Notes under the pieces: model-generated | Told to the model about the DNA's origin: nothing | The model's database searches: none | Seen by the model: the letters and a program-made list of their open reading frames with translations, nothing else | Part shown: piece by piece, positions 847 through 54,741 of the stretch | How positions within the stretch are numbered: the first letter of the stretch is position 1 | How the letters are laid out: the number at the start of each line of letters is the position of its first letter | Made by a program: the position numbers and the translations under genes | From: a phage | DNA length: 64,000 nt | Sequence record: OM867527.1 | Strand: one strand, 5' to 3'

Positions 847-3501
847 ATGGGCTTATTCAGTGGGAAGACCAAAGTATACGTAGCATCCTCTGTCTATAAC
901 ATGGCAGGGGATATACATAAACGTCCTAACTATATGAAGACTGTAGTCATTGGTAACATTATTTCCAATACAGGATTCACTATGGCAGATACTATCTCTG
1001 ATAGTTATCTGAATGGACCTGGTATTCGTATGCGACTGTTCTCCAGCTGGAGTAAGAACCACTATGATTCAGAAGTTGGTATGGCTGGTTCTTCATTGGG
1101 TGTACTGGCTAAGATTGACCCTACTGTAATAGAGGGTCAAATTACACCACCTGCTGGAGAATCAGTCTATGTTCAGGCAGCAGAGATTGGCTTTGCTGAT
1201 TTTGAGCAATGGTGTGACCAGTATCTTTATGAGAATGCTCCAAGTCGAATCATGGAACGATTCGACATAGACATTGATGAAGATACAAATGAAATTACTA
1301 TGACCTCCCTGGATGGAGGTTCTACTATTAAATTCACACCTACTAACTTTGAACCAGGTGCTTTGTATCTCTATGCTGATTACACATTCTATAAGTCCCC
1401 TACTACTAATCCACCTGTAGTAGGTCCGACTACTGTCTATGATGATGAGGATGACTTACCATCTACTTTGTTATGGTCTACTATCTCAAGCGATACGGCA
1501 GCTAATACAACCAATCTTACTAAGACTATACATACGCATTCTGTTTACTCTGATGGTAGACCAGATGAAGATAGTACTGTCACGGAACCAAGTGTAGATA
1601 ACTGGAACTCCTACATTAAGGTTTATCGTAGAGGGTTCACTGAGAAACCTGATAATGTGACTGTAGTTGTATCTGATAGAGTAATGACTCATAAAAAGTT
1701 TGGTGAGATTCAATCCAGTACTACTGTAGCTACCAACGTAGTTGATCTAGGTGGAGGTGTTACTCGTACCGACACAATTACTACAACTACAGAGACACTG
1801 GTTCGTAAGTATTCATCTCAGACTACTCGCACTGATACAGAGATGACTGCTGTTGGTACGCCTAAGATGCTTATCTATAAGCAGAACTCTGGTAACGTTG
1901 CACTGGATTCCCTGTTTAATACTGAGGCTACTGACAATCGTTTCTACCCATTCATTCCAATCAGGAATGATAAACAATGGGTAGAGAATGACCCAATCTA
2001 CCCACACTGTAAGAAAGCTCTTTATAAAGCTACTGGTGGAAAAATCGATAAGGTAGTGACTGAGCTTAAGAAGAATAACGATATAGGAGACATTCAGTAC
2101 ATTTATGGCACATTCGGTGTATCTCTTAATTCTCCTGAAGATACTGCTAAGGAATACATCTACCGTTTCTTTCAGATGGCTACTGAAGCATTCCCACCTG
2201 ACCCAACATACCCGACACTGGAAGCAGTGATTGCAGGGTATCAGGCAGCCAATGATGCAGTTGATGCATATGTAGAATGGTGGAGTAGGACTGAAGGGCA
2301 TACTATTGGAACTCCCCCACCACTGCCAGAATACCCTGTAATACCTAAACGAGAGTTTAGGGTGCACAGTAATAAGCATTACAAGTATGACATGACTATT
2401 GGCTGGAACTATGTATTTGAAACCACCCACTCAGGGCAAGCATGGTCTGGGGCTAAGCAAGGACAACTTCGAGCCAGATACGCAGGAGATATAACTCTTA
2501 CTCGTAAGAACATACGCACTGATAATAATTCAGGCTCAGTTACTGAGTTGGATGTTACTCCTACATTCTACACTATGCAGGAATATGAGTTACTCTGGCA
2601 GGATGGCAATGATACCTATCGTAAACTCAGAGTACTGGGTTTAAACCACAATAATAGGGTATATAAGAATAAGTCAGTACATATTGATGTTGCCGGGGCA
2701 ATGGGTGATGCAGAAGAGAGTGGATTCATTATTCCATTGCATACTAACATCTACCGTTCAATGTCACTGGTTCGAAGTACTCAGCTATCCACTGCCTGTT
2801 CCTACTTAGTAATGAACTCATACAAGAAGGTTAAGAAGAAATGGTATCAGACTGGAGCATTTAAGATTGTTGTTGTTGTGGTCGCTGTGGTTATCTCTGT
2901 ATTTACAGCTGGTGCTGGTGGTGCAGGTATACTTGGGGCATACGGTGCAGTTGGTGCATCACTCGGCTTTGTTGGATTAGCTGCTGTGATAGTTGGTGCT
3001 GTAGCAAATGCTATTGCTGGAATGATTCTGGTATCCATTATCACTAAAGTATCCACTTCACTGTTCGGTGATAAACTCGGTTTTATCATTGCAGCTATTG
3101 CTTCAATGGTAGCTATGAATGTTGGTACTGCCCTGTCTACCGGTACATCTCTGTCCACTCTGGCAAGTGAAATGATGAATGCCCAAAACATCATGCAGCT
3201 TACCAGTTCAGTAGGCAATGGTATTAGTCAGTATATTAATGCATCTACGGCTGCTACTATTCAGAAAGCAGAGAAAGTAATGCAGCAGTACAATACTGAT
3301 ATGATGGCAATTAATAAGCAGTATGAAGAGATGTTTGGTACTGCTGGACAGGGTGTAATTGACCCAATGCAATTCGTGTCAATGGAGTCACTGGATTCAT
3401 TCTTATCACGTACTCTCATGACTGGTTCAGATATAGCCGACCTGTCCTTAGACATGATAGGTAACTACTCTGATATGACCCTTAATACTGACCTTGTTTA
3501 A
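847..3501 (+). CDS. Large virion/internal protein (884 aa) with C-terminal Gly/Ala-rich hydrophobic segments
   Basis: ATG 1 nt after the upstream stop (TGA 843..845). C-terminal third has long hydrophobic glycine-zipper-like runs (VVVVAVVISVFTAGAGGAGILGAYGAVGASLGFVGLAAVIVGAVANAIAGMILVSII). Sits in the structural operon upstream of vRNAP. Confidence 0.45.
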   Translation: MGLFSGKTKVYVASSVYNMAGDIHKRPNYMKTVVIGNIISNTGFTMADTISDSYLNGPGIRMRLFSSWSKNHYDSEVGMAGSSLGVLAKIDPTVIEGQITPPAGESVYVQAAEIGFADFEQWCDQYLYENAPSRIMERFDIDIDEDTNEITMTSLDGGSTIKFTPTNFEPGALYLYADYTFYKSPTTNPPVVGPTTVYDDEDDLPSTLLWSTISSDTAANTTNLTKTIHTHSVYSDGRPDEDSTVTEPSVDNWNSYIKVYRRGFTEKPDNVTVVVSDRVMTHKKFGEIQSSTTVATNVVDLGGGVTRTDTITTTTETLVRKYSSQTTRTDTEMTAVGTPKMLIYKQNSGNVALDSLFNTEATDNRFYPFIPIRNDKQWVENDPIYPHCKKALYKATGGKIDKVVTELKKNNDIGDIQYIYGTFGVSLNSPEDTAKEYIYRFFQMATEAFPPDPTYPTLEAVIAGYQAANDAVDAYVEWWSRTEGHTIGTPPPLPEYPVIPKREFRVHSNKHYKYDMTIGWNYVFETTHSGQAWSGAKQGQLRARYAGDITLTRKNIRTDNNSGSVTELDVTPTFYTMQEYELLWQDGNDTYRKLRVLGLNHNNRVYKNKSVHIDVAGAMGDAEESGFIIPLHTNIYRSMSLVRSTQLSTACSYLVMNSYKKVKKKWYQTGAFKIVVVVVAVVISVFTAGAGGAGILGAYGAVGASLGFVGLAAVIVGAVANAIAGMILVSIITKVSTSLFGDKLGFIIAAIASMVAMNVGTALSTGTSLSTLASEMMNAQNIMQLTSSVGNGISQYINASTAATIQKAEKVMQQYNTDMMAINKQYEEMFGTAGQGVIDPMQFVSMESLDSFLSRTLMTGSDIADLSLDMIGNYSDMTLNTDLV

Positions 3502-3514
3502 CAGGAGAACCCTC

Positions 3515-3964
3515 ATGGATTTGTCATTCTTTACAGGCAACCAAACCCCACAGCCAGCTGCTATGTCTTGGTTGTCTAATAACAATCGTAACTTTAGTAC
3601 CCCAGCTATGAATTATCAGCCAGGACAGGTAGTTGGTATGGATTTTTTAAACGGAAATCTGGATAACTCACTGTTTGGTTCAGGTAATGGCTCAGCTGAC
3701 CAGCTTGGTATGAACATACCCACCATCCAACTAGGACTTGGTGCACTTGGTTCATTAGCTAATATCTATGGTGGTTTCCAGGCTAATAAGTTAGCCAAAG
3801 ACCAGTTGAACTTTGCTAAGAGTGTTACTAACACTAACCTGAATAATCAGATTAAGTCTTATAACACTGCACTGGAAGACCGTGCTCGTAGCCGTGCTAC
3901 AGCAGAGAACCGTGACCAATCCACTGCTGATGCTTATATTGCAGCTAATAAGCTAACTCGTTAA
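3515..3964 (+). CDS. Small virion-associated protein (about 149 aa)
   Basis: ATG at 3515 preceded by AGGAG (acaggagaaccctcATG); the track ORF starts earlier at 3494 but lacks an RBS. Lies between two structural genes. Confidence 0.4.
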   Translation: MDLSFFTGNQTPQPAAMSWLSNNNRNFSTPAMNYQPGQVVGMDFLNGNLDNSLFGSGNGSADQLGMNIPTIQLGLGALGSLANIYGGFQANKLAKDQLNFAKSVTNTNLNNQIKSYNTALEDRARSRATAENRDQSTADAYIAANKLTR

Positions 3965-46920: not shown

Positions 46921-46947
46921 TGCATATCCTTAAGCTGCGGAGCAGCT

Positions 46948-49896: not shown

Positions 49897-50079
49897 TTAA
49901 TGATTTACGCATGATTTAGTACTCCACATAAAGTTAAAAGGTTTATTGTTACGTACAATTCTTACAACCATTTGATAGCCATTGAGTTGCACAACACCAT
50001 AGTGTCGTTTCTGTACACCAATGTGATACCTACGAAAGATACACTCTTCAATGGCATCTTCTATGTTAGTGAATATCAC
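49897..50079 (-). CDS. Hypothetical small protein (60 aa)
   Basis: Short ORF; start overlaps the upstream gene's stop. Confidence 0.25.
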   Translation of the reverse strand: MIFTNIEDAIEECIFRRYHIGVQKRHYGVVQLNGYQMVVRIVRNNKPFNFMWSTKSCVNH

Positions 50080-50294
50080 TGGTTCCTCTTAGCAAACTTT
50101 TCAGCTTCATTAGCCCAGAGTTGCTTACGAACTTCTTTGGCTACAATGGAAGCAAACAGACACTTAACGAATACAACTGGTAACTTGCAGATAAGTACCA
50201 GCTTAGTAATTACCCACTTGGCTCCATTGAGGATGTAACCACGTAGGCGATACAGCACATAGCAGAGTATTACAAACGCAATGAAGTCCAACAT
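50076..50294 (-). CDS. Small membrane protein (72 aa)
   Basis: N-terminal TM (MLDFIAFVILCYVLY) and a second hydrophobic segment. Confidence 0.35.
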   Translation of the reverse strand: MLDFIAFVILCYVLYRLRGYILNGAKWVITKLVLICKLPVVFVKCLFASIVAKEVRKQLWANEAEKFAKRNQ

Positions 50295-50298
50295 AGTC

Positions 50299-50484
50299 TT
50301 ACGCCTTATGAAGTTTACGGATTTGTTTACGAGTAGGTTTAGCTACAAAGAAGTGGTCATAGCAGTGACCATTTTCATCTTTTACGGATACCTGCCAACG
50401 AGCATTCAGTGTCATCTTACTGCCCCAAGGTTGCAACATAACAATCATCTTCTGTGAGTTATAACGGTTACATAATGTACGCAT
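50299..50484 (-). CDS. Hypothetical small protein (61 aa)
   Basis: Short ORF. Confidence 0.3.
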   Translation of the reverse strand: MRTLCNRYNSQKMIVMLQPWGSKMTLNARWQVSVKDENGHCYDHFFVAKPTRKQIRKLHKA

Positions 50485-50590
50485 AATGGTTACTCCTTCA
50501 TCTAATATAAATCTATATCTATCTGGTTACTGTTTCAGTACCCTTCGTCTAAAGATACTCAAAAAGTAGAAATAGCTTATCGTCTAGTTA

Positions 50591-50618
50591 AAAATAAAAG
50601 ACTCCCCGAAGGGAGTCT
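50591..50618 (-). terminator. Rho-independent terminator (minus strand), UUCG tetraloop
   Basis: Minus-strand reading: AGACTCCC-TTCG-GGGAGTCT followed by TTTTATTTTT. Confidence 0.6.
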
Positions 50619-50627
50619 ATTGATTGA

Positions 50628-51008
50628 TTAGAAAGTCAGTTTACGAGCATATTTATTCTCGTCTGCTGGGATGTCAGCAGCCTCTGCTTTCACACGACGA
50701 AGTTGAACTTGCAGGTTAATGATACCTTCCTCACCTGGTTCCAGGTTCTGAGCATATGCAATTAACTGTTCAAGCAAGTCATTCTGTGCACAACGCATAG
50801 CACGGAAGTCAGCATTGCTGCTATTAGTAGGCAGCGGTTCCTGAGTATCCAGTGGAATACCAGTAGGCAGAGAGATGAATTTCTCATCATCAGAGCCTTC
50901 GTTAGCTACATAACCAATGTTCAGCCAGAACTGAGCTTTAGGCTTATCAGTTTTAGCAGTGGTAGCAGCAGCGTTAAATTGACCGAAAGTGAATTTTTGA
51001 ATAGACAT
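50628..51008 (-). CDS. Hypothetical mildly acidic early protein (about 126 aa)
   Basis: ATG 51008 has a GGAG RBS (track start 51107 is upstream of it). No recognisable motif. Confidence 0.45.
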
Positions 51009-51194
51009 TTTGTACTCTCCAGATAAATGATTGTTTGATTTATGGGTTTGTCCGTCGGTGACTAAACCCAAGAAAAGACTTAGGATTTCGATAAGAAGTG
51101 GATTCATTCTTATCCTTTAGACGCGGAGCGTCTTGGTTTTTAGAAGTAGAAGTAAAGTAGATAGTTATCTACTTTTGACTATCTATCTAATGTT

Positions 51195-51222
51195 CAAAAC
51201 AGGAGACTCCGAAGAGTCTCCT
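51195..51222 (-). terminator. Rho-independent terminator (minus strand), UUCG tetraloop
   Basis: Minus-strand reading: perfect 9-bp stem AGGAGACTC-TTCG-GAGTCTCCT followed by GTTTTG. Confidence 0.6.
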
Positions 51223-51229
51223 AAGTGGC

Positions 51230-51553
51230 TTAGTCTTTAGTCAGGATGTCAATTACTTTGGAATATTCTGCGTTATAGATACGAGCGTTCTCTGAATCCT
51301 TGCAGAATTCCTCAATACTTTTCTTACGCAGAGTCTCAGTCATAGCTGTTTCCTCTGCCAGTTTATTAACAAAGGTATGCATTTCTAATTTAGTACGAAT
51401 GGCTTGTTTCTCTGCCATAGTACTTACATATGAATTAAGCATACCTACTGCTTTAGTTGCTGTACTGAATGTATCTGCAACAGTAGTAGCAGCTGAGTTA
51501 ACAGTACCAAGTAAAGTTCCTGCGGTCATACGTACAGTAGCTTGAGTAGTCAT
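51230..51553 (-). CDS. Hypothetical early protein (107 aa)
   Basis: Reverse ORF; helical-looking. Confidence 0.4.
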   Translation of the reverse strand: MTTQATVRMTAGTLLGTVNSAATTVADTFSTATKAVGMLNSYVSTMAEKQAIRTKLEMHTFVNKLAEETAMTETLRKKSIEEFCKDSENARIYNAEYSKVIDILTKD

Positions 51554-51637
51554 GATGATAGCTCCAATAGTTGATGATAGGACGACATGTCCATAACATG
51601 CGGAGCATGTGTAACGTGTAAGGTGGGGTAGGGTAGT

Positions 51638-51688
51638 GGCTACACCGTCAACATACCGGGGGGGCTAGTTGAGTGTAAGGGTGTAGCC
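51638..51688. repeat. Inverted repeat GGCTACACC ... GGTGTAGCC, 9 bp arms, 33-nt spacer
   Basis: Arms at 51638..51646 and 51680..51688 inside a 550-bp ORF-free gap; the spacer contains a G7 run. Confidence 0.45.
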
Positions 51689-51787
51689 CCAGCCACACCA
51701 CTATAGCCATGCATAACTATCACAATTTTGACATGCAAAAATATTATAGGCACTGTCTCTATAAGCAGATAACTTTGAGGTACTAAC

Positions 51788-51913
51788 ATGAAAGATGGAT
51801 GGGGTAACTACAATCCTACAGACCCTGAGAACTGGTTGCACTTTATTGCCTGTGCTTGTGCTGTAGGATTCATAGGTATTGTACTCTTGTCACTGGTTCT
51901 ACCTTATTTATAA
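51788..51913 (+). CDS. Candidate small hydrophobic peptide (41 aa) on the opposite strand
   Basis: ATG 51788 with upstream GAGG; encodes MKDGWGNYNPTDPENWLHFIACACAVGFIGIVLLSLVLPYL, which ends in one TM helix. Below the ORF-track length cutoff. Confidence 0.3.
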   Translation: MKDGWGNYNPTDPENWLHFIACACAVGFIGIVLLSLVLPYL

Positions 51914-52102
51914 ATACTATGGGGGATATCTATCTATCCCCTATTCATCGTAGCGTTTGATACTTAAAACCTCATATAGCCTACCATTTACAAGCAATGG
52001 TCCACCTACTTCTATGAAAGCTAGGCTGTGTACTATCACTGGTTCAGAGGAATAATGCAGTAAGTTAGTACCTTTCATTCCTAATAGTTTAACGTTCATG
52101 CT

Positions 52103-52387
52103 TCAGTACCTTTCCTTATAGATTGGGGTGTTGTTCTCGAAGGATAGGATGTACTTGTCTGTATTGAGATGCCAAGGGCTAAAGCTACCCTGCCAGGACA
52201 TTGGTGTACCTGGTTCAAGTAGATGTACTACCGAATTCTTATTGTATAGGAAGAGTAATCCTTGTATCTCATGTAGGGACTGTTCATCTGGAACCAGGAT
52301 AAGTACATCAGCATTCAGGTCAGCTATTTCTTTATGGAGGATGTAATTTTCCCCATTAGGCTCTGGATAAATTTTACTGATAACCAT
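52103..52387 (-). CDS. Member of a tandem paralogous early-protein family (94 aa)
   Basis: Shares the motif block LILVPDEQSLHEIQGLLFLYN...LLEP with the neighbouring ORFs. Confidence 0.45.
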   Translation of the reverse strand: MVISKIYPEPNGENYILHKEIADLNADVLILVPDEQSLHEIQGLLFLYNKNSVVHLLEPGTPMSWQGSFSPWHLNTDKYILSFENNTPIYKERY

Positions 52388-52707
52388 TAGAGACTCTTGC
52401 CGCTAGATAAATATGAGGTAGAAGGGTAGAGGGTAATAAGCCTGCCAGTTAAGGTAGTTACTACCATAGGTTCATTTTCAGAGAGTATGTACACGGAGGT
52501 GTGTTCCGGTATTTCCACGGAATCTACTATCTTAATGAATTGGATAGGTTGCCCTAACATTAAGCAAGTACCTATGAACACATCTGCTTCTTCACTTGGC
52601 TCATACAAGATGGCAGTAACTCTACCCTTACCTGCCAGAATATTATCCAATGTGTATGGGGATAAATAGCAAGTAGTGGCAAAGCTAATCAGGCAATACA
52701 GGTGCAT
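52387..52707 (-). CDS. Divergent member of the tandem paralogous early-protein family (106 aa)
   Basis: Weaker match (AILYEPSEEADVFIGTCLMLG...IVDSVEIPE) in the same position of the protein. Confidence 0.35.
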   Translation of the reverse strand: MHLYCLISFATTCYLSPYTLDNILAGKGRVTAILYEPSEEADVFIGTCLMLGQPIQFIKIVDSVEIPEHTSVYILSENEPMVVTTLTGRLITLYPSTSYLSSGKSL

Positions 52708-52710
52708 ATC

Positions 52711-53088
52711 TTACTTCCTTACATAGTAGTAACGGTATTCCCCCTTCTCATAACGACTCTCCCACTGATAGTCATCAGATACCATCATGTATGGGATAGG
52801 GTCATTAGCGTTATAGTTGGTATAGACAGAAGGAGGAATGATACATACAACCTTACGATCAATACCTGCTAAGAAAAGTTGACCCCTTACTTCATGGTAG
52901 TCCTCTAGAGCAGGAACTAAGATTACTTGATGAGGATTACTGCATATGACTTCTTCTAAAGTGAAGTCAGTTGTATACATAGGCTCCCTTTCATCATAGC
53001 TGGGGATGGTCATTATGAATTTCATGATTGATTTTCCTTCCTTTAGGGATAGGTCTGAAGTAAATGGAAAGTGTTTTATTAAAGACAT
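52711..53088 (-). CDS. Member of the tandem paralogous early-protein family (125 aa or shorter)
   Basis: VILVPALEDYHEVRGQLFLAG...CIIPP. Start is probably an internal Met, since the 5' end overlaps the upstream ORF. Confidence 0.45.
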   Translation of the reverse strand: MSLIKHFPFTSDLSLKEGKSIMKFIMTIPSYDEREPMYTTDFTLEEVICSNPHQVILVPALEDYHEVRGQLFLAGIDRKVVCIIPPSVYTNYNANDPIPYMMVSDDYQWESRYEKGEYRYYYVRK

Positions 53089-53389
53089 TATGGGCAGCTA
53101 TCAATTCCCAACCAGGTATTTTATAGAAACGTATACCAGGGAAGAACTCTTTGAAACCGTCATAACAGGTGAGGTCATACACCTTTGGTTCGGTAAGTAT
53201 CTCGGTATTGAGTTGTAGGTTTGCTAAGAAGAGAGAGCCAACAATCTCATGGGATTCTTCACAGTTAGGTAAGAACACAGATTGCCAGGGAGCAATGAAC
53301 TTACTTACTGTTTCTGGTTCCCCAAGTAGATAAGGTTCTTGCTTATGAAGTACTCCGGTAATATCAATATCAAAAGCGTAGATGCTCAT
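52994..53389 (-). CDS. Member of the tandem paralogous early-protein family (131 aa)
   Basis: VFLPNCEESHEIVGSLFLAN...ILTEP. Confidence 0.45.
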   Translation of the reverse strand: MSIYAFDIDITGVLHKQEPYLLGEPETVSKFIAPWQSVFLPNCEESHEIVGSLFLANLQLNTEILTEPKVYDLTCYDGFKEFFPGIRFYKIPGWELIAAHNVFNKTLSIYFRPIPKGRKINHEIHNDHPQL

Positions 53390-53402
53390 ATTTGCATACC
53401 TC

Positions 53403-53440
53403 CTGAAAAAGAAATGGGGTAGAGCCTCTCGACTCTACCC
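53403..53440 (-). terminator. Terminator-like hairpin within the paralog array
   Basis: Perfect 9-bp stem GGGGTAGAG / CTCTACCCC with 8-nt loop; T-rich run follows on the minus strand (ATTTCTTTTTC). Confidence 0.45.
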
Positions 53441-53589
53441 CTTACCGTTTTCTATCACGGGTCAGTTCATCACCCTAGATACATGTGTATCGTTAGCCTA
53501 CTAGGTAGGAAAGGAGCCGGGCAACCCTGACTGTAGAAGTTATTAACTCTTTACGAGTACCGCCACTGTCTACTAGGCGGCATGACTAA

Positions 53590-53880
53590 TCACATCGTCA
53601 CCGTCATCCGAACACTGTCTTTGCTTCGCCTGACGGAGACACTATGAGGTAATTTTGTGAAGAACACAAGAGCTGAAAGGCGTTTTTCTAAAGAGTAAGT
53701 TTCTCTTGGTTCTAAGATTTTAATGCCTGGACGATTCTCTAAAAGCATCATCCCAGCTAATTCATGGTAGGTGTCTTCATCATGTGTGATAATAATGTCA
53801 TCTGAGAGAATACCAGCTTTAGTGTGGTCTAGTTCTTTGTATTCATCTTTAGAGTCCTGGACTCTCATATAGATTCTCAA
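53590..53880 (-). CDS. Member of the tandem paralogous early-protein family (96 aa)
   Basis: IIITHDEDTYHELAGMMLLEN...ILEP. First gene of the reverse early block. Confidence 0.45.
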   Translation of the reverse strand: MRIYMRVQDSKDEYKELDHTKAGILSDDIIITHDEDTYHELAGMMLLENRPGIKILEPRETYSLEKRLSALVFFTKLPHSVSVRRSKDSVRMTVTM

Positions 53881-54051
53881 AGGTTACTCCTTTTAGTAAT
53901 AGGGTCATCGGAACATTACATACTATACAGTATCATGAACTTTTTCTATATCATGACTAAAGTGTAACTGTATGGTATCGTTTCTTCAAGGGGTAACTCA
54001 CCCCAAGAAAAGAATCTTCTTTAATAGACATAACTTTGTAGCGAGATAAGT

Positions 54052-54741
54052 ATGAGTGAATTAACTAAGCAGCAGATTATTAATGCCTTACCTGCTAACT
54101 TCAAAAACAGTGTGACCCAGGAGTTGGTAGACACGATTAACAACATTACCCAAGACCAACTGGTTGCTGAGTCCTTCCGTGAAAACTTTATCTCCTACTC
54201 TGGTGTAATGAAGGAAGGTAAGTTTAAGACGCAGGACTACATGAATGCAGTTCAGTATGTGACTTACAAACATATGGGCTACTCAAATAAGGAAGCCTAC
54301 TTCAAGACATTCCCTAACCGACAAGCAGAACTCGTAGCACGAGGAACCAGTGAGAAAGATATTAGTGCTTATGTATCTGCTTATCACAGAGGTAAGCTAG
54401 TTAACCTCATCATGGAACAAAGTTTGGTTCCAGTGTGGATTGTGAACCAGGACAATTATCAGAAGGCTATCAATGTTCAGGTTGAACTGATGACTACAGC
54501 AGTAAGTGAGAAAGTAAGATGTGATGCAGCTAACTCTATCCTTACTCACTTAGCTAAACCAAAGGATCAGGTAACAAATATCAATCTGGACTTGAGAGAG
54601 AACTCTGGATTAACTGACCTCAAGGCAACACTTGCTGCATTAGCTGAACAGCAAATCAGTGCAATCAATAGTGGTGTACCTACCAAAGAGGTTGCTGGTT
54701 CTAAACTAGTACGTGCAGATGAGGACATTACAGATGTCTGA
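54052..54741 (+). CDS. Putative terminase small subunit (by position upstream of the large subunit)
   Basis: 229-aa ORF whose stop overlaps the terminase large-subunit start; first gene of the forward late block. No motif confirmation. Confidence 0.35.
   Translation: MSELTKQQIINALPANFKNSVTQELVDTINNITQDQLVAESFRENFISYSGVMKEGKFKTQDYMNAVQYVTYKHMGYSNKEAYFKTFPNRQAELVARGTSEKDISAYVSAYHRGKLVNLIMEQSLVPVWIVNQDNYQKAINVQVELMTTAVSEKVRCDAANSILTHLAKPKDQVTNINLDLRENSGLTDLKATLAALAEQQISAINSGVPTKEVAGSKLVRADEDITDV

Follow-up and report, generated by a model that had tools for sequence, protein, structure and literature searches.

A family of small gp70/gp71-type proteins and a gp70-linked structured RNA element at the right genome end of an N4-like phage

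The phage sequence OM867527.1, analyzed here as a stretch of 64,000 nucleotides (nt; hereafter, the window), carries on its reverse strand, between positions 52103 and 53880, an array of five consecutive small open reading frames (ORFs). A preliminary description, made from the sequence alone, had placed ORFs of 94, 106, 125, 131 and 96 amino acids (aa) here, and all five are found at these positions; they are referred to below as p1 to p5, respectively. Escherichia phage HK2 (PP514361; Schitoviridae, Enquatrovirinae, Gamaleyavirus) matches the region at 100% identity, and 58 other G7C-like phages show 80-92% identity to it. The earlier view of the phage as N4-like and lytic is supported. All five ORFs are annotated as hypothetical proteins in HK2; in the record of phage G7C the same genes are numbered gp70, gp71, gp71.1 and gp71.2, at 70.2-71.7 kb of a 72.9-kb genome, and N4 carries gp70, gp71 and gp72 at the equivalent place. 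The genes themselves are thus already deposited and numbered (N4 gp70 and gp71; G7C gp71.1 and gp71.2). The array consists of:

53590-53880, reverse strand: p5, the N4 gp70 orthologue, 96 aa when started at TTG 53880 (92 aa, from ATG 53868, in the annotation)
52994-53389, reverse strand: p4, orthologue of N4 gp71 and G7C gp71, 131 aa, phrog_9160
52711-53025, reverse strand: p3, G7C gp71.1 type, 104 aa from ATG 53025, phrog_11661 (longest ORF 52711-53088, 125 aa)
52387-52707, reverse strand: p2, G7C gp71.2 type, 106 aa, phrog_12099, the divergent member, with the motif AILYEPSEEADVFIGTCLMLG
52103-52387, reverse strand: p1, the fifth copy, 94 aa, phrog_16338

Two of the start codons call for comment. 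A start at TTG 53880 gives p5, the founding and most conserved member of the family, the N-terminus MRIYM, which aligns with the family N-terminus MRLFY, and a Shine-Dalgarno sequence (AAGGAG) lies 6 nt upstream; for these reasons the 92-aa ATG 53868 start in the HK2 record is probably wrong and the TTG start right. The 125-aa ORF most likely begins at ATG 53025, yielding 104 aa (MKFIM...), a start that agrees with phrog_11661 and with the G7C, PhAPEC5 and HK2 annotations; p3 overlaps the end of p4 by 32 nt. The start of p1 overlaps the stop of p2 (ATGA), and throughout gp71 to gp72 neighbouring genes either overlap or leave a gap of 3 nt. The Shine-Dalgarno sequence of p4 (AGGAGG) directly follows the T-run of an intrinsic terminator (see below), and no σ70-like promoter was found between gp70 and gp71. 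The p1 gene does not occupy this position in G7C; it is present in ECBP1 (locus L012) and PhAPEC5, and others have a 108-aa variant.

A shared block, formed by a strand, an acidic loop, a helix with the motif H-E-x-x-G-x-L-F-L and a second strand, had been noticed in the preliminary description and can indeed be seen in four of the ORFs. When arrays were gathered from 20 related loci (287 ORFs), a loose regular expression for the motif matched only array members. Each array ORF falls in a PHROG of its own (7213, 9160, 11661, 12099 and 16338, all of 'unknown function'), with weak cross-hits among them. Family alignments were built from the 20 loci, 12 of them retrieved with a narrow gp70 alignment, and compared by hhalign. 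The types of p4 and p3 (gp71 and gp71.1) were linked with a probability of 91.7% (E 8e-7), those of p3 and p1 (the 94-aa type; 75 columns) with 90.4% (E 1.4e-6) and those of p5 (gp70) and p1 with 84.5% (E 7e-6), the other pairs among these four being weaker (p5-p3, 32%, E 5e-4; p5-p4, 8%, E 0.004; p4-p1, 3.9%, E 0.011). The 106-aa type, p2, stayed below 1% against any other copy (E 0.06-0.7), and the controls gp72, gp1 and gp2 gave <=0.5% in any comparison (E 0.11-0.82). The earlier count of four clear paralogues and a divergent one is matched by a chain of four at 84.5-91.7% and by the failure of p2 to join it directly. A pairwise hhalign probability below 50% had also been proposed as grounds for abandoning the shared motif; four copies are linked above this value, whereas p2 falls below it and is joined to them by other evidence.

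The true motif of p2 is AILYEPSEEADVFIGTCLMLG-QPIQFIKIV, in which the His has been lost. With homologues included in a MAFFT alignment, p2 is in register with the rest, and G39 and P74 are invariant in 17 of 17 sequences (the five window proteins and 12 homologues). A hidden Markov model (HMM) seeded from the four clear families and iterated over the 287 ORFs, with an inclusion threshold of E 1e-3, reached the 106-aa family (E about 1e-5) by iterations 3-4 and converged on 85 ORFs, all contiguous array members, recruiting 0 of the ~200 other ORFs. The family HMM also found N4 gp71 (E 5.7e-5, falling to 7.8e-13 after iteration), which the G7C and PhAPEC5 records name as similar to the p4 type, while p5 matched N4 gp70 (E 3e-9 by tblastn; 3e-22 by blastp in the local set); both N4 proteins have the motif. 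N4 gp70 and gp71 (YP_950548 and YP_950549) and G7C gp70, gp71, gp71.1 and gp71.2 are true homologues or orthologues of the array, which they also resemble in position (the first rightward genes after gp69) and in the RNA and terminator that follow gp70 (see below); they differ in that N4 has two copies against the five of HK2, and in that the databases split the copies into five separate families. Taken together, homology of all five copies is very probable. No DNA-level repeats were detected between paralogues; the duplications must therefore be old, and, as read from the sequences, the right genome end is where the family grew by tandem duplication.

The copies are also predicted to share one fold. 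An AlphaFold2 model of gp70 (p5) has a mean predicted local distance difference test score (pLDDT) of 82.9 and a predicted template modelling score of 0.70, and shows a short helix, a strand, a 13-residue helix, a strand and four further strands; the 92-aa form was used in this run, which may explain the disordered N-terminus. The p2 model has low confidence (pLDDT 54.8), with the elements in the same order as in p5. Foldseek searches of BFVD with the p5 and p2 models returned the same set of uncharacterized N4-like array proteins, none of known function, among them three proteins of Klebsiella phage KP8, several of the Achromobacter Axy phages and of JWAlpha/JWDelta, OLB145 gp71, and proteins of IME11, PhAPEC5 and PhAPEC7. 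The gp70 model matched the BFVD model of the 106-aa family with a probability of 0.99. The family members, of ~90-130 aa, consist of a single alpha/beta domain with an N-terminal strand (M-x-h-Y/F), a strand, an acidic loop, a helix of 12-13 residues with the invariant Gly, a second strand, a beta-meander and the invariant Pro near the C-terminus. The array proteins are soluble, acidic to neutral (isoelectric points, pI, of 4.7-6.4) and without a transmembrane segment. That no residue besides this Gly and Pro is invariant, and that several gp70 orthologues (inbricus, JZBo1) lack the His of the HE motif, argues against a catalytic site. A DEDT sequence in gp70, recalling the DxDxT catalytic motif of haloacid dehalogenase (HAD)-like enzymes, is not kept in paralogues or in distant orthologues. 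The RecA-like domain 2 of superfamily 2 (SF2) helicases, the C-terminal domain of DEAD-box, Snf2, RecQ and Cas3 proteins, was considered for comparison; membership would call for helicase motifs IV-VI or a Helicase_C profile match together with an adjoining RecA1 domain, and the array proteins do not show this combination.

Searched exhaustively against 1.84 billion protein representatives, a profile of the five window proteins and their homologues retrieved only 29 clusters at E<=1e-3, all of them small single-domain proteins of 54-132 aa, most of them gp70 orthologues (MRLFY..DG..W.E..K..GD.I.CH.E....G..L....FFTKIP). Searches of Pfam, NCBIfam, PADLOC and PDB sequences gave no match for the array proteins, in line with the initial impression of a family without recognized relatives, and PDB-sequence, Pfam, PHROG and BFVD searches (libraries without a dedicated anti-defence set) brought up no characterized relative. 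To judge from these profiles, the array genes form one family, that of N4 gp70/gp71, found only in N4-like phages (Schitoviridae). For N4 gp70, gp71 or gp72 the literature that we searched yielded no account of function, nor did we find it stated that the gp70 and gp71 copies form one superfamily; a variable group of short right-end ORFs was remarked on by the authors of the KP8 study (PMC6950046).

Copy number differs among N4-like relatives, as had been anticipated, ranging from 1 to 6 in 28 related loci. Counted with the iterated HMM, there is one copy in Moo19 (where the record ends) and in locus L020, two in N4, three in locus L018 and inbricus, four in G7C and JZBo1, five in HK2 and ECBP1, and six in pSb-1, IME11 and others. 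Seven more divergent metagenomic relatives, reached through their gp70 homologues, have the order gp69, gp70, a gap, 1-6 genes of ~100 aa and gp1; many of the ~100-aa genes match the HMM and others carry the motif by eye. The third family member of inbricus (L006, ~3440-3753, forward strand; motif ILLPDTDEGHSIAGWLML) is under-annotated, the coding sequence in the record being only the last 58 codons (3577-3753) of a frame open from 3229. In PhAPEC5 (PhAPEC5_76; L003, 329-643, reverse strand) and in L020 (4738-5061, forward strand), an unrelated ORF of ~105 aa with the HExxH-like sequence HELNHF lies in the array or replaces it. On a short metagenomic contig (L030, 245-750, forward strand) the gene ahead of the gp70 homologue is NinH-like and points in the same direction, in place of a divergent gp69, which may reflect a different genomic context or a misassembly.

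The preliminary description had supposed the array to be under diversifying selection. This is not seen gene-wide: the median ratios of non-synonymous to synonymous substitution (dN/dS; Nei-Gojobori) among orthologues of the five genes are 0.19, 0.20, 0.17, 0.27 and 0.24 (0.19 for p5), that is, purifying selection, so that these are real proteins. Identity within each orthologous group is 75-95%.

The array had also been placed at the leading edge of the early gene block, a placement that does not survive comparison with the G7C record. There, gp70-gp71.2 lie directly before the right-hand 'terminal repeat' feature and diverge from the terminase genes gp69/gp68, and the first 1160 bp equal the last 1160 bp. 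The left end of G7C maps to ~51695 in the window, reading downward, and the HK2 record and the window are therefore circularly permuted, with the terminal repeat collapsed. The window thus passes from the late genes (forward strand, from 54052 on) into the right-end cluster (reverse strand, 53880 to 51941), crosses the collapsed terminal repeat and reaches the left-end early genes gp1 and gp2. In genome orientation, leftward gp69 (small terminase-like) is followed by rightward gp70, a structured RNA with its terminator, the packed operon gp71-gp71.1-gp71.2-gp71.3-gp72 and the terminal repeat; N4-like relatives likewise have rightward genes of the family between gp69 and the terminal repeat/gp1. 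Relative to G7C, HK2 has a 648-bp insertion (window 51773-52420) with the 94-aa copy and a gp72-like ORF.

Promoters for the virion RNA polymerase (vRNAP) of N4 type consist of a stem ending in GC, a loop TCC and then TATGGA (PMC6950046). Taking as vRNAP promoters NNNGC-TCC-GCNNN hairpins followed by T(A/T)TGGA, upstream of a gene and at the left end, we found three candidates (xxxGC-TCC-GCxxx followed by TATGGA/AAAGGA/TTAAGG):

51590-51610, reverse strand: vRNAP-type hairpin promoter before the gp1 homologue
51113-51133, reverse strand: vRNAP-type hairpin promoter before the gp2 homologue
46928-46943, reverse strand: vRNAP-type hairpin promoter further into the early region

These promoters show where the early block really begins; none was found between 54050 and 51612 or upstream of the array. 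During N4 injection the DNA enters with its left end leading and is not fully inside until the middle transcription machinery has been produced (Lenneman and Rothman-Denes, PMC4496689). Being at the right end, the array is the last DNA to enter the cell, and with vRNAP promoters only downstream of it, vRNAP-dependent early expression is very unlikely.

A terminator-like hairpin had been reported to interrupt the array. It is a real terminator, but not a simple interruption: it ends a structured RNA tied to the first gene. The elements of this region are:

53405-53592, reverse strand: structured RNA element, ~190 nt, directly 3′ of gp70 and ending in the terminator (from covariation and RNAalifold)
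53560-53581, reverse strand: hairpin P1 of the RNA
53569-53573 and 53533-53537, reverse strand: pseudoknot between the P1 loop (GUAGA) and the linker (UCUAC)
53539-53544, reverse strand: conserved AAUAAC
~53519-53531 (5′ strand) and ~53461-53476 (3′ strand), reverse strand: long helix P2/P3
53511-53516, reverse strand: junction CUCCUU
53497-53509, 53478-53491 and 53445-53460, reverse strand: hairpins
53406-53441, reverse strand: intrinsic terminator (the hairpin reported earlier), an 11-bp stem GGGGTAGAGTC/GGCTCTACCCC with the loop GAGA and the T-run ATTTCTTTTT

The terminator is of the Rho-independent kind, with 7 G-C pairs in a stem of 11 (53441..53416), a tetraloop and then ATTTCTTTTT (53415..53406). 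All 11 pairs show compensatory changes in relatives, and the terminator is independently annotated in PhAPEC5 and JWAlpha. In Gamaleyaviruses the ~200-nt spacer between gp70 and gp71 is better conserved than the flanking genes, and it remains recognizable in N4, Klebsiella phage JZBo1, Pseudomonas phage inbricus and Achromobacter phage JWAlpha. In the RNAalifold prediction (z = -2.7 in one run), the GC-rich hairpin P1 comes first; a long helix with interruptions then closes a three-way junction that bears two small hairpins, and one more hairpin precedes the terminator. Eight sequences of the Gamaleyavirus group served to build a covariance model, which gave full-length matches in inbricus (60 bits), JZBo1 (43), JWAlpha (34) and N4 (32.5) and also matched 8 of 8 additional divergent loci (E 1.6e-14 to 8.8e-6). 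In every locus examined, representing 16 distinct types from phages of E. coli, Klebsiella, Pseudomonas and Achromobacter and from metagenomic relatives, the RNA lies directly 3′ of a gp70 homologue on the same strand (L005, 4362-4566; L006, 2862-3051; L007, 2853-3027; L008, 2759-2988; and L018, L020, L025 and L027-L033).

Across the 16 sequences, 96.9% of the pair cells hold standard pairs and 38 of the 42 pairs show compensatory change. The covariation score is 0.622 against 0.187 in shuffles (reached by 0 of 500) and <=0.091 with slid partners; the alignment was fitted to the model and so favours the structure, but the margin is very large. The element thus has a conserved structured domain borne out by covariation, a feature expected of riboswitch-like or attenuator leader RNAs. 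Pairing of the P1 loop with the linker covaries as GUAGA/UCUAC, GUGG/CCAC, GCGGA/UCCGC, GGAGU/ACUUC, GGAGA/UCUUC, GGAGC/GCUUC and GGGGA/UCCUC. Over 10 distinct combinations, 46 of 50 cells pair, compared with 35.3 +/- 2.6 in shuffles (none of 2000 reaching the observed value) and 33-55% in slid registers, which supports a pseudoknot. The conserved unpaired nucleotides are the ends of the P1 loop, A.UAAC and the junction CUCC(U/A), which resembles an anti-Shine-Dalgarno sequence.

A cmscan of 50000-54200, both strands, against Rfam 15 (E<=1) had no matches, ARAGORN detected neither tRNA nor tmRNA, and the literature that we consulted contains no description of the RNA or its pseudoknot; it thus appears to be an undescribed phage RNA motif. 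Several assignments were tried and rejected. A hairpin inside the RNA, CCTAC-[TCC/CTA]-GTAGG, is not a vRNAP promoter, having neither the GC-TCC-GC closing pairs nor a downstream TATGGA, and is not conserved in N4; a C/D-box or kink-turn reading of UGAUGA...CUGA is incompatible with the spacing in HK2; and there was no match to a hammerhead core. The gene downstream of the RNA is a family member in most loci. In L020, gp70 and the RNA are present without a paralogue array, the downstream ORF being the unrelated HExxH one, and the RNA is therefore tied to gp70 and not to the array.

On its other side, gp70 is separated from the divergent gp69 by a strongly conserved intergenic region:

53881-54051: gp69/gp70 divergent intergenic region, strongly conserved
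53982-54014: palindrome, next to gp69
53955-53968: motif GTTACACTTTAGTC (ACTTTAG invariant in 11 phages)
53914-53937: hairpin GUCUC-CUUAC-AAUA-GUAAG-ACA-GAGAC, with some compensatory changes
~53897-53902: CCTATT, invariant, about 20-45 nt before the start codon

The invariant ACTTTAG sits inside GTTAGACTTTAG in 11 divergent phages. N4 and inbricus are ~95% identical over 75 nt of this spacer (L005, 3950-4055, and equivalents), and the conservation spans phages of E. coli, Klebsiella, Pseudomonas and Achromobacter; a scan of viral contigs with the pattern of the element retrieved only N4, inbricus, JWAlpha and one further relative. The motif occurs a single time in the window and therefore does not represent a repeated class of phage promoter. 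The gp70 unit probably has its promoter and/or its 5′ leader in this spacer.

The distal end of the cluster has two further features:

51941-52099, reverse strand: gp72-like ORF, 52 aa, closing the right-end operon, with a C-terminal part homologous to N4 gp72
51922-51941, reverse strand: hairpin GGGGATAGATAGATATCCCC, a weak terminator-like operon end immediately after the gp72-like ORF

The first ~28 residues of the gp72-like ORF are the N-terminus of a family member of 106-112 aa in PhAPEC5 and IME11 (L003, 1-339, reverse strand; L010, 6121-6441), which suggests a chimeric gene that arose when the distal end of the array recombined or was truncated. Neither the family HMM nor hhalign detects it as a family member. 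A hydrophobic ORF of 41 aa (51788-51913, forward strand), a coding sequence in HK2, lies in an otherwise non-coding stretch by the presumed genome terminus, and its reality is doubtful.

As to function, we favour, at a probability of roughly 0.45, a reading in which the array proteins serve as binding modules and not as enzymes, with an accessory part in host interaction, because they are soluble, acidic to neutral, without conserved catalytic residues and variable in copy number among close relatives. Each copy would bind a different host (or phage) macromolecule and thereby tune infection, host takeover or counter-defence being the likely kind of role, as the preliminary description had also thought. 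The proteins would be expressed only after entry of the whole genome, in the middle or late phase. While gp70 would be made from its own conserved upstream region, the downstream copies would depend on an assumed read-through of the terminator that ends the gp70-linked RNA; if the array is reached in this way, the terminator would set the ratio of gp70 to array proteins.

Small accessory genes in variable arrays at genome ends, usually acting on host proteins, are known from the class I 0.x genes of T7 and the pre-early genes of T5. The HK2 array is like these in that its genes are small, diverge fast, look non-essential and differ in number between close relatives, and in this sense it is a familiar kind of feature, the gp70-linked RNA being the more unusual one. 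However, the T7 and T5 arrays lie at the first-entering end and are truly early, whereas that of HK2 lies at the last-entering end, consists of copies of one predicted fold and has a head member conserved across subfamilies. Several points weigh against a role as accessory binding modules. The role is drawn from general features, and the timing, the promoter class and the read-through are presumed; the model of p2 has low confidence; purifying selection across the genes, together with the high identity of orthologues, bears no arms-race signature. Finally, gp70 is kept across subfamilies and is strictly coupled to a conserved RNA and upstream element, which makes it look like a core regulatory component and less like an accessory one.

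This last point leads to the strongest alternative. A structured RNA and an intrinsic terminator between an upstream unit and a downstream operon are reminiscent of several known systems. In type III toxin-antitoxin systems (ToxIN), an RNA, a terminator and a protein gene follow one another. Phage antitermination systems include lambda N/nut-tL1 and the put RNA of HK022 (PMC4496689). The gp70-linked RNA, however, has neither boxA/boxB nor a put-like architecture of two stems, and a ToxIN-like system was rejected, there being no direct or tandem repeats in the element, no endoribonuclease-like protein and no PADLOC or Pfam match downstream. It is nevertheless possible, if less probable than the accessory role, that gp70, the new ~190-nt RNA class (with its pseudoknot, three-way junction and exposed CUCC(U/A)) and the equally conserved upstream element together form a core regulatory device of N4-like phages, conceivably a ribonucleoprotein or RNA switch gating the right-end operon, or a stable small RNA acting on host or phage translation. 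A fuller version, to which we give slightly less credence, has gp70 and the RNA as a conserved regulatory or ribonucleoprotein module and the paralogues as duplicated variants of a nucleic-acid-binding scaffold; gp70 would bind the RNA or act with it on the transcribing polymerase, either as an antiterminator or attenuator into the operon or as chaperone or partner of a stable small RNA derived from the 3′ end. The constant company of the two, on the same strand, in all 16 types, including the array-less L020, speaks for such a module, as do the non-coding flanks of gp70, better conserved than its protein, and an order of gene, RNA, terminator and operon like that of antitermination and attenuation layouts. 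The acidic to neutral pI values, however, are unusual for RNA binders. An antiterminator pairing of the linker UCUAC with the 5′ arm of the terminator can be drawn in HK2 only: it is not kept in N4, inbricus and JWAlpha, and inspection of these four, in place of a formal search, revealed no pairing with the terminator arms kept in all. Moreover, in L020 and L029 the next ORF starts 200-300 nt past the terminator, so that the RNA does not look like a typical leader.

An involvement in genome-end function, with the proteins acting together with terminase or the right terminus in generating the terminal repeat, in the initiation or termination of packaging or in replication of the end, and with the conserved elements as DNA sites, is in our judgement improbable. 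In all relatives the cluster does have the terminase genes (gp68, gp69) on one side and the right terminal repeat on the other, and the non-coding sequence beside gp69 is unusually conserved, but a copy number of 1 to 6 is atypical for core packaging or replication factors, and the Gamaleyavirus array puts 1.5-2 kb between the element and the terminal repeat. The gp70-gp71 element, moreover, contains G-U pairs and a pseudoknot, and its terminator, with a T-run, is specific to one strand; it therefore fits an RNA and not sites in duplex DNA. That some or all of the ORFs, especially the 106-aa one, are non-functional, their motif being due to chance or to a decayed duplication, is largely refuted, since against the non-significant direct hhalign comparisons of p2 with the other four and its poor model stand the five dN/dS values of 0.17-0.27 across many orthologues, hundreds of conserved homologues in public data, conserved gene boundaries with translational coupling and an iterated HMM fully specific to array members. 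The probability left after these readings goes to something else.

The right-end genes of N4, a classic model phage, and of N4-like phages, which are frequent candidates for therapy, have had no assigned function. The analysis turns a block of 'hypothetical proteins' into a defined module, in which a conserved head gene, gp70, with its RNA is followed by a variable set of paralogues. A misreading of position that came from a permuted assembly is corrected as well, and the placement of the array in the last-entering DNA constrains the roles open to its genes. Should the RNA prove regulatory, it would represent a new class of phage RNA conserved across phages of Escherichia, Klebsiella, Pseudomonas and Achromobacter; and should gp70 and the RNA form a regulatory device, the paralogue array would be a diversified set of effectors under its control.

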